Shown in pieces: positions 1 to 4,689 of a DNA stretch of 4,689 nt. Under the pieces are notes generated by a model. It was not told the DNA's origin and searched no databases. It saw nothing but the letters and a program-made list of their open reading frames with translations. Numbering within the stretch: the first letter of the stretch is position 1; every line of letters begins with the position of its first letter. Source of the stretch: a virus (lineage: Duplodnaviria; Heunggongvirae; Uroviricota; Caudoviricetes); IMG/VR virus record IMGVR_UViG_2802429221_000008, positions 1 through 4,689 of that record. One strand, given 5' to 3'. The translations under genes and the position numbers were made by a program.

Positions 1-81
1 CGCGTAATGTTAACTGGGGCTTTTCTCTATCTGCCTTTTGGTGTTCATGCCTGAGACAGATAGCCTCAAGCACCCGCAGCA

Positions 82-109
82 ATTCTACAAAAAATCATCT
101 CTATTTCAA
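82..109 (-). promoter_or_regulatory. Candidate sigma70 late promoter (pR'-like) immediately downstream of Q
   Basis: On the minus strand: -35 TTGAAA (complement of 104-109), 16-bp spacer, -10 TAGAAT (complement of 82-87). Begins 3 nt after the Q stop codon. The predicted transcript would run toward coordinate 1 and off the window. Confidence 0.35.
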
Positions 110-111
110 TT

Positions 112-522
112 TTACTGTATTTCTGCAACCGGCCTTCCGGATGAGCCGCGCCCAACATATCTGTCCATTTCCAGTCTGATATCAAGCATCATCAACATCC
201 CAGCAACTATCCCCTCAGCCTTTTGCAACAAACGGCCAACCCAGCAATCGGAACGTCCATGTTTCCTTGCCAGTGCCATGAACGTCATTCCGAACACATA
301 GTAATCAACCAGTAAGTCATGTAAATCTTTGTTGTTCTTATTCAGCCGGGCCATGCATCCGCAAATGACCATCGCGTCATCGTCACAACATTGCGGACGT
401 GACTTAACCTTTGACGGAATCAATCCTTTGAATCCCGCAGCAATCGGTGACCAGGTAACATCCTCGTGGTTATTTGCCACCCATGCCCCCCAACGCTCAA
501 GAACCATCTGAATATCACGCAT
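112..522 (-). CDS. Q: Phage late-gene antitermination protein Q family (phage 82 / QuuD-like)
   Basis: 136-aa ORF. N-terminus '[22 protein letters not shown]' and Cys cluster '[18 protein letters not shown]' match my recollection of the 82/QuuD-type Q antiterminators (recalled, not searched). Strong AGGAGG Shine-Dalgarno upstream. Last gene of the operon and followed immediately by a promoter-like element, as expected for Q and pR'. Confidence 0.65.
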
Positions 523-779
523 CAGCGCAGTACCTCCTGCACCAGCTTTTCAAACTTTCCAACTTTGGTTTCCAGCTCTGCCACACAATCCACCAGCTCA
601 TCCACTGCTTTTTGTGCGCGGTGTTTCGCCTGCATCAGTTCCCTGAGCGCCGGCACCATATCCCGACGAATGGCATCTTTTGTTACACCTGTTTTTTCCA
701 GTTGTTCCGCCTGTCGCAACATTTCCTGTGCCTGTTTACGTAGTTGTTCAGGGGTAAAAGTCATTGTCTGGTTGTTCAA
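522..779 (-). CDS. Small hypothetical protein, 85 aa, predicted helical/coiled-coil, charged; translationally coupled to Q
   Basis: ORF begins at TTG (779) with a GGAG Shine-Dalgarno (complement of 788-791) 8 nt upstream; the first in-frame ATG is at 764 (80-aa version) but has no Shine-Dalgarno. Stop TGA overlaps the Q start (TGATG at 520-524). An AGGAGG motif near its 3' end serves as the Q ribosome-binding site. Confidence 0.6.
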
Positions 780-904
780 AAGAAACGCTCCATCTTACTG
801 CTGTCAGTTCGTTTGTTGCTGTATCTGCGCGGCTGAGGCTGCTGCATTGGAAGAGTCCTGTGCGCTCCCCTGAAAGTTGAAATGTTTTAGCGATGCCTCA
901 AGTC

Positions 905-1765
905 TCATTGTTCGCACTCTCCAACCAGATTAAGAATGACTGCCGCCCCGTTGTCTTCCATGTATTCGTCCTTTCCGCTTGCCAGAAACCAGCGGCACAC
1001 CTCCACAGCTTCAGCGCGTGTCACCGGTTTGATGGTTGCCAGTAATTTTTCCAGGTATCGCTCACGGTCGTATACAGACTCATGGTGTTCGTAATAACCA
1101 AAGTCGTAGCCGAGTTCCTGGCCAGCAGTACGGCGAACGTTGTAAAGCCAGTCCCAGTAAACAAATTCACGAACAACATCTGACAGTGTATGAGGCTCTG
1201 GCAGAACGTCACGATAGCCATCAACATATGCGCGACGCTGATCATCAATTTCATTTATACGACTGCCGTTAATGCTTCCGTCTCTCTTTTCGTCTGCGGT
1301 CCAGCCCCACTGGTAATCATCAGTAAATTTTTGGGAAGACCTGATCACTCGCTCGGCCTCTACGTCCTCCATCGCAGCCTCATAGCTGCCGAACGTAGCG
1401 CGAACATCAGCAGCTTTCTTGATGTTCTTACGCGCATTTTCAATGGCTCTCGCTGGATTATCCATACCGATAGTACCGAAAGCTGCCTGGAAAGGATCAC
1501 AGCCATTCGCCAGCAGATAACGGGAATACCGCTCCTCGGCCTCTTTTGGAGAGATTTTAATTTTCTCCAGCGCTGCTTCTGCAGCGTCCAGATGTGCCGG
1601 TTCGTTCAGGCGGATGACCTCCAGTACCCACAGATAGGCATCGGTCTGTTTATGCCCGGTGATTCTCTGTTGCTCAGGCAGAGGCTTGATGTTTGCCAGG
1701 GCGGAGCTATGCGCTGCCGTCGGGATGGTGAATAGTGCTTTATGTTCGTTGTTATCTGTACGCAT
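905..1765 (-). CDS. Hypothetical protein, 286 aa, function unknown; acidic and aromatic-rich (W/Y/D/E) C-terminal half
   Basis: Long ORF whose ATG overlaps the primase stop (TAATG at 1763-1767), indicating co-translation with the replication genes. No catalytic motif recognised by eye. Position corresponds to the variable nin-like region between replication genes and Q. Confidence 0.7.
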   Translation of the reverse strand: MRTDNNEHKALFTIPTAAHSSALANIKPLPEQQRITGHKQTDAYLWVLEVIRLNEPAHLDAAEAALEKIKISPKEAEERYSRYLLANGCDPFQAAFGTIGMDNPARAIENARKNIKKAADVRATFGSYEAAMEDVEAERVIRSSQKFTDDYQWGWTADEKRDGSINGSRINEIDDQRRAYVDGYRDVLPEPHTLSDVVREFVYWDWLYNVRRTAGQELGYDFGYYEHHESVYDRERYLEKLLATIKPVTRAEAVEVCRWFLASGKDEYMEDNGAAVILNLVGECEQ

Positions 1766-2742
1766 TACGCAGCCGCCTTTTTCTTGTAGAAAACCAGCTC
1801 ACGAACCTGATCGCCGTTCATGAGCATGTTGTTAAAATCATCGTGATCGGGCCAGTACACGCTCACGCGCTGCAGGTCATTCTTTGCCAGCAGATTGGCA
1901 TGAGCGCATTCATAGGCCGCTGCCAATCCGGTGGCACTGTTTTCGTCACGGTCAGCAAAAATAATCAGGTGCTTAACGCCAGCCGGAGCACGAAATTTCT
2001 TCATGAAGTTAGCCGTCATAGTTGCCCAGGTGTTTACGTTGTAAATCTGGTGCGCTGACAGAGCCGTTTCGATGCCTTCGGCGATGCCAAGTGTGCTGGC
2101 TACCGGGAACATCCGGATCGCTACTGACCGGGCGTGATCAAGATAGTTATCTTCCTGCAGGGATTTTTGGCGCTTTGCACTGGCACCGATATCTGCTTTT
2201 TTGGGACCATCGAGTAATGTCTGGTGCAGATAGCACAGTTCCCCTTTATCATCGGTGGCGAGGGAATAAAGCGACTGATACACCCTCCCGGCATGGCGCT
2301 GCTTATCGTTGAAACGGATCGCTTCAAGCGGCAGACTGAAAATGCCGCGCGCATTGAGATACGCAGCACCAGAAGTGCCACGTAACGGCTGCAGCTTCGC
2401 GAACTTATTCAGAACCTTTGTACGCAGGCTGGTAGCGCTGCTGCTGACCGGGATTTTTACACGCTGAAAATCATTACCGATCAGGTGGTCTATTTCCCTA
2501 CAAACCTCATTGAATGGTTTTCCCTGTGTCAGGGTGACAAGCTTCATACCGTCACCGCTGCCGCAAGTACAAATCCACGTTCCACGCCCGTCACGGTCAT
2601 CAATTCGCAACTTTCCGCGCGCACCGCATACAGGGCATTCTCCTTTATAGTGATTTTTTCCAGTTATCGGTGGCAGGCCAAAATGCTCTAAAATTTCAGG
2701 CCAGCGGCCTTTCGCAGCATCTACTGTTTTCATAAAACTCAC
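1765..2742 (-). CDS. DNA primase with N-terminal primase-type zinc ribbon and Toprim catalytic domain
   Basis: 325-aa ORF. Zinc ribbon 'CPVCGARGKLRIDDRDGRGTWICTCG' (C36-C60, nt 2563-2637). Toprim-like acidic motifs 'IAEGIETALSA' (E222/E225) and 'LIIFADRDENSATG' (D264/D266), nt about 1939-2091. Start is GTG at 2742 overlapping the helicase stop (GTGA); the first ATG is 9 nt downstream at 2733, so the true start is ambiguous. Stop TAA overlaps the next ATG (TAATG). Confidence 0.8.
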   Translation of the reverse strand: MSFMKTVDAAKGRWPEILEHFGLPPITGKNHYKGECPVCGARGKLRIDDRDGRGTWICTCGSGDGMKLVTLTQGKPFNEVCREIDHLIGNDFQRVKIPVSSSATSLRTKVLNKFAKLQPLRGTSGAAYLNARGIFSLPLEAIRFNDKQRHAGRVYQSLYSLATDDKGELCYLHQTLLDGPKKADIGASAKRQKSLQEDNYLDHARSVAIRMFPVASTLGIAEGIETALSAHQIYNVNTWATMTANFMKKFRAPAGVKHLIIFADRDENSATGLAAAYECAHANLLAKNDLQRVSVYWPDHDDFNNMLMNGDQVRELVFYKKKAAA

Positions 2743-4391
2743 ACCACTACATTTTTCTGAAGTTGCTGTTTGGCGTTGATAATTGCCTTAGTCGGGCAGT
2801 TCTCAGGGAGCTCGTAAATTGCGGCACAACCTGGCGGCAATGCGCCTGCATGATGAGATTCTGTCTGTGGTTGAGGGGGGCGTTTTTGCCCCTTCGCAAA
2901 CCTGATGAGTTTGTATCTGATGTAGTTGCTTACCTCCGGGGTAATTTCCATCGGGAAATCACTCAGGTTATCCGGCCATTCGCCGAACTTCTCCCGGAAA
3001 GTGTGAGCGCACCAGCCATCACTAACGGGCTTTTTCCCCTGCGATACGCGCTGGCGCTGATAAAATTTGATCTGGCTCCACCAAGCCTGTTTCTCTGCCT
3101 TTGTCGATAGATGCTGATTTTTACCCAGCTTTTTAAGTTTGCGCCCGGTATCGGTATCGACATCCTCACCACCCAACGGCTTATGCCCGCATTTCGGGCA
3201 GACGTATACACCAGCGGGTTTCATGTAGTGGCATTGAGAACATTCATGGGGGAGTTTTTCGGCCCGCTCCTCAGCTGCACGGCGCGCACTTTCCTCCATG
3301 CCATCAGACTTACCGGGGAGATCGTCATACTCGATAGAATCCGGGTAACCGAGGCGGTGTACGGTGCCACTGTGATCGAATATGAGACAAGATTCTTTAC
3401 CCGGCGCTGTGCGCAGGCCGCGCCCAATCGCCTGCAGCCAGCGAATTTCACTTTTTGTTGGCCTGGCGTAGATGATGCAACGAACGTCACTATCGAAGCC
3501 AGCCACCAGAACGCCCACACTAACGATGATTTTCGTTGCACCAGTTTCAAAGCGGTGAATGATGGTCTGACGCTCATCCACTGGCGTGTTGGCGGTCATG
3601 ACCTCAGCGTTAATGCCAGCTTGGTTAAACTGGATTGTCAGAAAATTAGCATGGGCTACGTTGACGCAGAACGCGATTGTCGGCAGATCCCGGCCATTCT
3701 CCAGCCAGTTCTGTACGATGTCGCCCACCAGCGTAGAGCCGCACATGATTTCAGCCAGTTGAGCTTCGTTATAATCGTTGCCGTACTCAAGTGAAGACTT
3801 GGTTTTTACGCCTTTCAGATCCGGCTTTGTTGGCGCATAAAATTCGTATTTACTCAGATCGCCACGCTGGATTAACTCGCCGATGGTGGTCGGTTTAATC
3901 AGTCGGTCATAGTATTTGCCCAGGAACGGGGAAAACGGAGTACCCGACAGGCCAATCACCTTTACGCCTTTGCCGCGCAGACGTTCGATATCCTTCAGGA
4001 TGCGTTTTTTACGCAGGTGTGCTTCGTCGATAATCAGCAGATCAATATTTTCAGGAAAAACACGACGAATAAGCGTGTCGGCGCTGGCAATCTGAATTTT
4101 CCGGTCCGGATCGTAGTTCGGGTGATCCGCCCAGATATAACCGATTTCATCCTCCGGTAACCCGTACTCCACGAAGCGATTAGCCGTCTGACCAATCAGG
4201 ATAGTGTACGGTGCACAAAACAGAACGCGCATACCACGGCTGACGAACCCGGCAACGATGAAAGCGGCCAAACCGGTTTTACCGCTACCAGTTGGCGAAT
4301 ACACCATGAAGGTGTCATTTGCCTTCCAGTCACGACGCAACATGTTTAACGCTCGTTCCTGTGCAAAATTCGGCGTGATCGTCAGCTCCAT
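2739..4391 (-). CDS. Superfamily-2 DEAD/DEAH-box DNA helicase, phage replication type, with C-terminal CxxC...CxxC zinc ribbon and an uncharacterised ~150-aa tail
   Basis: 550-aa ORF. Walker A 'SPTGSGKT' (residues 32-39, nt 4275-4298), motif II 'LLIIDEAH' (DEAH at residues 122-125, nt 4017-4028), motif III-like 'LSGTP', motif VI-like 'QAIGRGLR' (320-327). Zinc ribbon 'CSQCHYMKPAGVYVCPKCGHK' (C384-C401, nt 3189-3242). GGAG Shine-Dalgarno 7 nt upstream of the ATG at 4391. Stop TGA overlaps the primase start. Confidence 0.85.
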   Translation of the reverse strand: MELTITPNFAQERALNMLRRDWKANDTFMVYSPTGSGKTGLAAFIVAGFVSRGMRVLFCAPYTILIGQTANRFVEYGLPEDEIGYIWADHPNYDPDRKIQIASADTLIRRVFPENIDLLIIDEAHLRKKRILKDIERLRGKGVKVIGLSGTPFSPFLGKYYDRLIKPTTIGELIQRGDLSKYEFYAPTKPDLKGVKTKSSLEYGNDYNEAQLAEIMCGSTLVGDIVQNWLENGRDLPTIAFCVNVAHANFLTIQFNQAGINAEVMTANTPVDERQTIIHRFETGATKIIVSVGVLVAGFDSDVRCIIYARPTKSEIRWLQAIGRGLRTAPGKESCLIFDHSGTVHRLGYPDSIEYDDLPGKSDGMEESARRAAEERAEKLPHECSQCHYMKPAGVYVCPKCGHKPLGGEDVDTDTGRKLKKLGKNQHLSTKAEKQAWWSQIKFYQRQRVSQGKKPVSDGWCAHTFREKFGEWPDNLSDFPMEITPEVSNYIRYKLIRFAKGQKRPPQPQTESHHAGALPPGCAAIYELPENCPTKAIINAKQQLQKNVVV

Positions 4392-4441
4392 TGTTTTGCT
4401 CCAGTGCTGATGAGATAATAATTTTGTGATGTGGTTTTCAT
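4382..4441 (-). CDS. Candidate 19-aa upstream ORF (MKTTSQNYYLISTGAKQWS) overlapping the helicase start
   Basis: ATG (complement of 4439-4441) lies 5 nt after a strong GAGGGGG Shine-Dalgarno (complement of 4447-4453). Its TGA stop (complement of 4382-4384) overlaps the helicase initiation region (ATG at 4389-4391) in another frame. Below the length cut-off of the supplied ORF track. Confidence 0.2.
   Translation of the reverse strand: MKTTSQNYYLISTGAKQWS
4391..4419 (+). promoter_or_regulatory. Weak candidate plus-strand promoter that could drive an antisense RNA ending at the 4560-4596 terminator
   Basis: TTGTTT (4391-4396), 17-bp spacer, GATAAT (4414-4419); the -10 matches TATAAT at 5 of 6 positions, the -35 only at TTG. 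Overlaps the helicase start codon on the other strand. Confidence 0.2.
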
Positions 4442-4457
4442 GGATTCCCCCTCACAT

Positions 4458-4491
4458 GGCTGGTGGCCTCCCCAAAGGCTGCCAGCCTCCC
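4458..4491. repeat. Tandem imperfect direct repeat GGCTGnnnGCCTCCC (two copies, 19-bp register); the second copy contains the perfect 11-bp palindrome GGCTGCCAGCC
   Basis: GGCTGGTGGCCTCCCC at 4458-4473 and GGCTGCCAGCCTCCC at 4477-4491. GGCTGCCAGCC (4477-4487) equals its own reverse complement about the central C. Located in the leader upstream of the helicase gene. Confidence 0.5.
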
Positions 4492-4518
4492 TTCTGATTC
4501 AGTTCCCCTGAAAAACAC

Positions 4519-4531
4519 TCTTCCAGGAAGA
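4519..4531. promoter_or_regulatory. Perfect 13-bp palindrome TCTTCCAGGAAGA (possible dimeric DNA-binding site)
   Basis: 6-bp arms TCTTCC / GGAAGA around a central A, in the leader region. An adjacent small hairpin TTCAG-TTCCC-CTGAA lies at 4498-4512. Confidence 0.3.
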
Positions 4532-4559
4532 ACCCTTTTTTCGTTTCTCAGCGCCTGAG

Positions 4560-4596
4560 CGCCTTGTACTATCTTGCTGATACAGGCGTTTTTTTT
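4560..4596 (+). terminator. Intrinsic-terminator-like hairpin plus T8 run on the strand opposite the genes
   Basis: Plus strand: CGCCT(T)GTA (4560-4568) pairs with TACAGGCG (4581-4588), giving an 8-bp stem with one bulged T and a 12-nt loop, followed directly by TTTTTTTT (4589-4596). On the minus strand the same hairpin is preceded, not followed, by the A-run, so it would only terminate plus-strand transcription. Confidence 0.4.
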
Positions 4597-4689
4597 AATT
4601 GCGCCCTTAAGACAGTGATCTACTTAACCAATGGATCTCTCCTGTTGGAAAAGTCCCTATTCCTACCCCTGCACCCAATCCCCCCCTTC

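Follow-up and report, generated by a model that had tools for sequence, protein, structure and literature searches.

A candidate antisense terminator that may double as a DNA site upstream of a phage helicase-primase operon

Genes and features at the locus

The virus record IMGVR_UViG_2802429221_000008 (Duplodnaviria; Heunggongvirae; Uroviricota; Caudoviricetes) was analysed over its positions 1 to 4,689, and this whole stretch of 4,689 nucleotides (nt) is called the window. Near the right end of the window, at positions 4560-4596 of the plus strand, a hairpin is followed directly by eight T. A first-pass annotation had taken this element for the end of an antisense RNA comparable to the OOP RNA of phage lambda. 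The reading tentatively favoured here is that the hairpin and T tract form a terminator of antisense transcription which doubles as a DNA site.

All genes in the window are encoded on the minus strand. They are the Q antiterminator gene (112-522), a gene of 85 amino acids, phrog_6204 (905-1765), a toprim primase (1765-2742) and an SF2 helicase with ResIII, DEAD and Helicase_C domains (2739-4391). The helicase is the first gene of a helicase-primase-Q operon and is the presumed target of regulation. The map beyond the window was taken from annotated relatives, namely E. coli VR50, Cronobacter phage ENT39118, Yersinia phage YP3, Salmonella phage Fels-1, the Shiga toxin (Stx) phage phi467 and Fostie. 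Going rightward in these relatives, about 430 nt of non-coding DNA are followed by phrog_852, which encodes about 100 amino acids, by a P22_Cro-like gene and by a divergent repressor. The stops that close the minus-strand reading frames at 4613-4665 had been read as the end of a gene; the relatives place the window end instead within this conserved non-coding region of about 430 nt, which separates the cro/phrog_852 pair from the helicase-primase-Q operon of a lambdoid prophage and would serve in control. The hairpin and T8 occupy the left edge of this region.

The stop codon of phrog_852 corresponds to about window coordinate 4820, as seen in the nearest relative (L021) and in VR50, YP3 and Fels-1. 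It therefore lies about 220 nt past the T tract, and an RNA with its 3' end at 4596 would not reach any upstream coding sequence. The phrog_852 protein has no Pfam match, and none to cII. No plus-strand gene flanks the element on either side in the relatives, so its position opposite to every gene, as first described, holds for both the window and the relatives. The proposal that it could end a convergent gene outside the window is not borne out, since the genes to the left and the cro/phrog_852 pair to the right are all on the minus strand.

Plus-strand reading frames annotated as hypothetical proteins do occur over the non-coding region or antisense to phrog_852 in Fostie (L103, 5142-5258 and 5308-5430) and in a Klebsiella phage (L104, 4508-4894), and these are probably annotation artefacts. 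A coding explanation for the plus strand was considered and rejected: the reading frame that begins at 4426-4429 has 22 codons in the window and 43 in L021, and its length is not kept.

The hairpin and its T tract

The plus-strand stem-loop spans 4560-4588 and consists of an 8-bp stem with one bulged T and a loop of 12 nt. The 5' arm is made of CGCCT (4560-4564), the bulged T (4565) and GTA (4566-4568), and the 3' arm is TACAGGCG (4581-4588). The complete element at 4560-4596 thus reads CGCCT(T)GTA - CTATCTTGCTGA - TACAGGCG - TTTTTTTT. The last part, at 4589-4596 on the plus strand, would supply the U-tail of the putative terminator. This description agrees with the first-pass annotation. In silico, the plus-strand RNA of 4556-4598 folds at -12.0 kcal/mol (z = -3.3), and 2 of 200 shuffled sequences fold as well.

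A stable GC-rich stem-loop that directly abuts a U-rich tract on the transcribed strand is the hallmark of Rho-independent termination. The element shares with the Rho-independent terminators of E. coli the GC-rich stem, an uninterrupted U8 and a folding energy in the usual range, and differs from them in its 12-nt loop, where 3-8 nt is usual, in its one bulge and in a loop that is conserved as a DNA palindrome. A simple consensus terminator scan did not list the hairpin at 4560-4588, because its loop falls outside the limit of 3-8 nt that the scan applies. The same scan lists plus-strand sites at 1916-1935 and 1664-1684. Within the primase gene, and antisense to it, a second plus-strand hairpin followed by T6 lies at about 2160-2202 (-12.2 kcal/mol).

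Two alternative pairings involve the same bases. A tandem copy of the 5' arm, CGCCTG at 4552-4557 on the plus strand, can pair with CAGGCG (4583-4588), and this pairing, which has a larger loop, is the minimum-free-energy fold of 4545-4600; in relatives the alternative arm is 87.7% paired and shows no covariation. The alternative hairpin H2 (4585-4605; GGCG - T8AATTG - CGCC) encloses the T tract and is mutually exclusive with the terminator stem. One compensatory change is found in H2, from GGGCG/CGCCC in VR50 to GGGCA/TGCCC in Fels-1 and L094.

Within a single sequence the hairpin with its T tract is only mildly unusual. Hairpins of -8 kcal/mol or lower followed by at least T6 are expected 0.65 times per dinucleotide-shuffled window when both strands are counted, and the real window has two; runs of at least eight T or A are expected 0.41 times. 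Being unremarkable in one sequence, the element must draw any significance from its relatives.

Conservation among related loci

A set of 225 related loci was gathered. Over the same 75 loci, identity is 93.2% for the non-coding DNA (4392-4685), 89.1% for the helicase DNA (2739-4391) and 80.6% for the primase DNA (1765-2742), and the non-coding DNA has the higher conservation in 65 of the 75. The region is built from two parts. Segment A (4392-4501) always accompanies this type of helicase, and segment B (4502-4685 and beyond) carries the hairpin, the T tract and a conserved core. Between the two segments, a minus-strand gene of 122 amino acids is inserted in Fels-1, phi467 and about 20 further loci, while L062 and L035 have a different gene of about 195 amino acids in place of segment A, and the Klebsiella-type lineages have no segment A. 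The inserted 122-amino-acid gene lies at 6120-6488 in Fels-1 (L101; STM0899) and at 6128-6496 in L102, and is also present in L060 and others. In the mosaic insertions the hairpin and T tract stand 15-20 nt upstream of the start codon of the inserted gene.

The element is conserved with an intact T tract in loci from Escherichia, Citrobacter, Enterobacter, Cronobacter, Yersinia and Pseudescherichia. Every segment-A lineage has a hairpin-like sequence followed by T5-T9, and in about 55 distinct relatives the tract of 5-9 T is essentially uninterrupted. A tract of 5-8 T is kept in all 12 sequence clusters that have the leader of the window. Tracts of at least five T are found in 12/12 clusters with the promoter motif described below and in 8/18 clusters that lack it (Fisher p = 0.0015), although the clusters share ancestry.

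In diverged lineages the outer part of the stem has been rebuilt. Three loci (L019, L012 and L099) form it as AGCC...GGCT followed by T6, and across the wider family the outer helix beside the T tract takes forms that are different and still complementary, such as AGCAC/GTGCT, AGCGCT/AGCGCT, CAGCA/TGCTG, TGGCA/TGCCA and CGCCT/AGGCG. The two flanks of one lineage pair better with each other than with flanks exchanged among lineages (3.70 versus 3.10 bp; permutation p ~0.0006).

Candidate antisense promoter and leader of the helicase

The candidate antisense promoter is an extended -10 element, TGAGATAAT, at 4411-4419 on the plus strand, with a -35-like TTGTTT at 4391-4396 and a predicted start at about 4426. 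It lies 20-28 nt from the helicase ATG and, on the plus strand, 140 nt upstream of the hairpin. The extended -10 motif TGNGATAAT has one match in the window, where 0.10 would be expected. It was followed over 108 loci, which include Xenorhabdus-type leaders that are otherwise unalignable. Over these loci it takes the form TG-N-[G/C/A]ATA[A/C]T, in which TG, the A at -11 and the T at -7 are invariant and the N and the base at -12 vary. The substitutions flanking the motif are non-synonymous for the upstream open reading frame (ORF) that overlaps it, and therefore the motif, not the peptide, is what is conserved. In these alignments the pattern of substitution is the one expected of a promoter. 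In lineages lacking segment A, only TAAAAT, with no usable -35, was found on the plus strand. For the opposite strand, inspection by eye found no acceptable -10/-35 pair at the T tract and palindrome, and the consensus scan gave none.

The overlapping upstream ORF is an unannotated minus-strand frame of 19 codons at 4382-4441, encoding MKTTSQNYYLISTGAKQWS*, whose TGA stop overlaps codons 2-4 of the helicase. It has a strong Shine-Dalgarno sequence of its own, GAGGGGGA, and is present in all 43 distinct segment-A variants, including Fels-1. The encoded peptide is invariant at its N-terminus and varies at its C-terminus; L219 uses GTG in place of ATG as the start codon. From this arrangement, the ORF would be translationally coupled to the helicase.

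Directly upstream of the Shine-Dalgarno sequence of this ORF lies a leader hairpin of 12 bp (4458-4487, plus strand), with arms GGCTGGTGGCCT and AGGCTGCCAGCC, a CCCCAA loop and two non-Watson-Crick pairs that are G.U only on the plus strand. Its variants fold better as plus-strand RNA (-19.3 versus -15.5 kcal/mol), and the plus strand is better in 12 of 14 real variants. The Xenorhabdus-type leaders have a different and longer stem of about 16 bp with the same CCAAAG loop, and the bias is in the same direction (-22.2 versus -17.7 kcal/mol; plus better in 8 of 10). In the two lineages the advantage of the plus strand is 4-5 kcal/mol. The tandem hairpins that follow the phrog_852 stop served as a control and showed the opposite bias, with G.U pairs on the sense strand in 39 cases versus 11.

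At 4519-4531 lies the perfect palindrome TCTTCC-A-GGAAGA, which every lineage keeps directly in front of the helicase or, as in the lineage of the window, in front of the inserted segment A. It may be an operator.

Inverted palindromes and the conserved core

At the apex of the terminator stem the DNA forms an 18-bp quasi-palindrome, GTACTATCTTGCTGATAC, at 4566-4583 (site 1), which has the half-site GTACYA and is a candidate protein-binding site. Over the relatives it has the form GTACYA-N6-TRGTAC. At position 5 of the half-site, T.G, C.A and T-A combine freely, and the apical stem is therefore under no pairing constraint. All groups carry a second copy of GTACYA-N6-TRGTAC, inverted and about 150 bp away, past the window end and across the conserved core. 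The second copy was located at 4417-4434 in L001, 6654-6685 in L101 and 1833-1852 in L060. The arms are 32 nt, 72% complementary and 134 nt apart in Fels-1, and 20 nt, 75% complementary and 140 nt apart in L060; in VR50 the spacing is 151. The type of palindrome switches between lineages at both copies while the core is unchanged, for example to TTTAGACGTCTAAA in Xenorhabdus L017 and to GGACGTCTAGGCGTCC in L035. This behaviour suggests that the palindrome is probably a protein-binding site, and that the same DNA which forms the apical stem probably also binds protein. In some other lineages both copies are replaced by palindromes of the TTTAGACGTCTAAA type or by iteron-like repeats. In the lineage of the window, GTTTTTAT comes after the second copy on the sense strand and resembles a weak tR1-like terminator.

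The conserved core begins at 4597 and fills the window to 4689, with GATC at 4617-4620 and 4634-4637, CTGTTGGAAAAG at 4642-4653 and then C-rich repeats. It extends about 130 nt past the window (2170-2300 in L021). The CTGTTGGAAAAG box is invariant, and the repeats are G-rich on the sense strand. The mean GC skew of the core is -0.45, and 55 of 78 unique cores carry a canonical G-quadruplex motif on the sense strand, against 0 of 78 on the plus strand. Repeated sites thus flank a conserved core beside replication genes, which is the arrangement expected of an origin or protein-bound control region, and the C-rich core may be an origin. As plus-strand RNA the core would be C-rich and G-poor, a composition prone to Rho action. 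An IHF site, a DnaA box and a sigma-54 promoter were looked for in the core by eye only and were set aside, with partial and non-conserved matches.

Proposed antisense unit and alternative readings

In the proposed mechanism, plus-strand transcription would start at about 4426 from TGAGATAAT within the helicase leader, cross the start codon and Shine-Dalgarno sequence of the upstream ORF and the leader hairpin at 4458-4487, and end by Rho-independent termination at the hairpin and T8; no canonical plus-strand terminator comes earlier after the promoter motif. This would yield a cis-antisense RNA about 170 nt long with its end at 4596 and with full complementarity to the upstream ORF at its ribosome-binding site and first codons. 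By pairing with the leader, this RNA would either keep the upstream ORF from being translated or cause cleavage, and the expression of the coupled helicase and of the replication genes would be lowered. The sequence features, their conservation, the promoter-like pattern of substitution and the strand bias of the leader hairpin are observed directly, and from them we infer the start at 4426, the stop at 4596 and the regulatory effect on the helicase.

Several observations weigh against this interpretation. The -35 of the candidate promoter is poor, with 3 of 6 matches, and the promoter was not reported by the consensus scan; the shared ancestry of the clusters weakens the test for co-occurrence of T tract and promoter motif; and the T tract of lineages lacking segment A often amounts to no more than TTTAAA or TTTT. 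In the stem, 91.3% of positions are paired over 42 distinct close relatives versus 90.8% after shuffling; a value as high as the real one arises in 108 of 500 shuffles, and the close relatives thus show no significant covariation. The fold energies of the terminator region are equal on the two strands (plus -8.1, minus -8.4 kcal/mol), and an assignment of the hairpin to one strand by folding energy was dropped since it showed no difference. Among the non-Watson-Crick cells in the stem of the relatives, G.U pairs on the plus strand predominate (55 versus 10), an excess that two inherited polymorphisms mostly account for. The 12-nt loop is long, the stem is weak in many relatives, most relatives have one or two G.U pairs in the lower stem, and the apical stem behaves as a protein site rather than as a helix. 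The group of Fels-1 and phi467 poses a particular difficulty. It has no outer stem, 3-5 nt separate the stem from T6, and the 122-amino-acid gene lies between promoter and T tract, so that the RNA would have to be about 500 nt long.

The first of the alternatives takes the element as acting at the DNA level only, and we consider it possible, on the doubtful side. The palindrome would then be one of two inverted sites for a phage protein that bracket an origin or regulatory core, the likeness to a terminator would be incidental, and the binder might be phrog_852 or a replication protein, with the A/T tract possibly serving as a bend or unwinding element. This explanation is consistent with the inverted second palindrome found in all groups, with a palindrome type that changes by lineage around a constant core, with the free pyrimidine at position 5 of the half-site, with the T tract that is kept in the Fels-1/phi467 group even where the outer stem is absent, and with a conservation higher than that of the neighbouring genes. 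The paired GATC, the invariant box and the strand-skewed C/G runs of the core also fit it, and such a core would suit an origin for a helicase-primase module that has no initiator gene. No origin is known for these modules (PMC8951638). It leaves unexplained the covariation of the outer GC helix, as well as the constant placement of the T tract on the 3' side of the plus-strand hairpin and its greater length in the presence of the antisense promoter motif. The two explanations are compatible and not exclusive.

A structure in the sense (minus) strand leader was also considered, in which the hairpin, as part of the transcript derived from pR, would affect processing, stability or translation of the helicase message. 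This we regard as unlikely. The minus strand does fold as well or better (z = -3.3 for 4392-4598; -14 kcal/mol for 4545-4600), the stem of the window is fully Watson-Crick and forms on either strand, and L166 (AGCAC/GCGCT), an intermediate in the wider family, has an A.C on the plus strand that is a G.U on the minus strand. The commonest variants (CGCTTT...ACGGGCG), on the other hand, produce C.A mismatches when read on the minus strand, no leader function is known for an A-run 5' of a hairpin, and the hairpin is separated by 170 nt from the helicase start and by 120 nt from that of the upstream ORF.

Still less probable is a functionless chance hairpin beside a homopolymer, or the terminator of a convergent gene off the window. 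Chance is favoured by the shuffled expectation given above and by the stem statistics in close relatives, and is countered by conservation of the element with its T tract over loci of the genera named above and by the rebuilding of the stem in diverged lineages; a convergent terminator would need a plus-strand gene, and none lies on either side.

A true equivalent of lambda OOP, with a pO-like promoter and an RNA ending inside the 3' end of a cII-like gene, has the early-right operon beside replication genes and a plus-strand terminator and promoter motif near the helicase start in its favour, and is very improbable because the upstream coding sequence stops about 220 nt past the T tract with no overlap, the predicted RNA is about 170 nt and not 77, no Rfam family matches and phrog_852 has no match to cII. 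Of the original OOP-like proposal, the antisense unit as such stays plausible, given the extended -10 element and the plus-biased leader hairpin, and the lambda geometry has to be given up.

With Rfam, nothing above chance was found in 4300-4689 of the window, the best score at the site being 13.8 bits for Esr41, where the gathering score is 102. No family reached its gathering threshold in the corresponding regions of four relatives, and STnc100 was found only elsewhere in Fels-1. Nothing is annotated under the region in 56 RefSeq E. coli genomes, and the element is in none of the well-studied E. coli strains with transcriptomes. No paper on transcripts, small RNAs or origins of this helicase-primase module was found in the literature.

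Relation to known systems

The OOP RNA of lambda is defined by its overlap with the 3' end of cII, and an OOP equivalent has been seen by RNA sequencing in the lambdoid prophage BTP1 (PMC7067206). The unit proposed here would resemble it as a short antisense RNA within the early-right operon, with a candidate promoter near the start of the first replication gene and a predicted intrinsic terminator. It differs in that the target would be the helicase leader and the upstream ORF and not cII, in a predicted length of about 170 nt compared with 77, and in the replication genes, an SF2 helicase and a toprim primase in place of O and P. No sequence similarity to lambda OOP was detected.

In plasmid R1, the antisense RNA CopA acts in the CopA/tap/repA system by blocking the translation of a leader peptide (PMC5717011). 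The present layout shares with this IncFII system a short leader ORF, here putatively coupled to the replication gene, and an antisense promoter inside the leader, which in the phage is a candidate. An antisense RNA with a long imperfect stem-loop, ending at an intrinsic terminator and blocking the translation of the leader peptide, would be a further likeness. The differences are that this is a phage and not a plasmid, that a helicase and not an initiator would be regulated, that there is no sequence relationship, and that the RNA of the Fels-1 group would have to be about 500 nt. By analogy, the layout resembles CopA/tap/repA of R1 more than lambda OOP.

For the inverted palindromes, the origin oriV of RSF1010 offers a comparison. 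It contains ssiA and ssiB, paired inverted hairpin sites that are used by the primase and helicase of the plasmid itself. In both systems a pair of related sites able to form hairpins occupies opposite strands beside helicase and primase genes, and a classical initiator gene is absent. The present sites flank a C-rich core at a distance of 150 bp from each other, do not resemble ssiA/ssiB in sequence, and would belong to a candidate origin.

A wider model can be drawn from these comparisons, and we regard it as rather unlikely in its entirety. The region would be a plasmid-like replication control unit in a lambdoid phage, with the hairpin and T tract as one boundary. The amounts of the SF2 helicase and the P4-type primase would be governed by an antisense RNA together with a coupled leader peptide, inverted sites would bracket an origin that works without an initiator, and the terminator would shield that origin. 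In such a unit, the G-quadruplex-prone sense strand would allow the pR transcript to form an R-loop primer, and the terminator, followed by the C-rich, Rho-prone stretch, would keep antisense transcription out of the origin.

Helicase-primase modules are common in lambdoid prophages of the Enterobacteriaceae, including Stx phages such as phi467. A study of the diverse non-lambdoid replication units found in Stx phages describes no origin or RNA control for these units (PMC8951638). Antisense RNAs with intrinsic terminators are already well known in phage early regions and in replicon control. What would be new, should the antisense RNA be real, is such an RNA within an uncharacterised replication module, and the surrounding control region is more unusual than the terminator itself. 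Replication-gene dosage would then be set by a plasmid-style circuit of antisense RNA and leader peptide, unlike the cII/OOP logic of lambda, and in Stx phages this would bear on the copy number of the toxin gene after induction. If the element is a DNA site only, it marks the boundary of a likely origin. The analysis defines concrete sites in either case, namely the promoter bases, the T tract and the two palindromes.

Hairpins at the phrog_852 stop

The tandem hairpins used above as a control form a feature of their own. Of 222 loci, 163 have one to three of them at the phrog_852 stop or past it, for example at 4464-4512 in L001, and they are not in Rfam. Their sense-strand loop TTAAAGGY is conserved, and their 5-bp stems covary, with 51 distinct stem combinations. 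The phrog_852 protein carries the arginine-rich stretch YRKENRARHEANTRLR, and by analogy this stretch together with the TTAAAGGY hairpins is reminiscent of an N/boxB-type pair.

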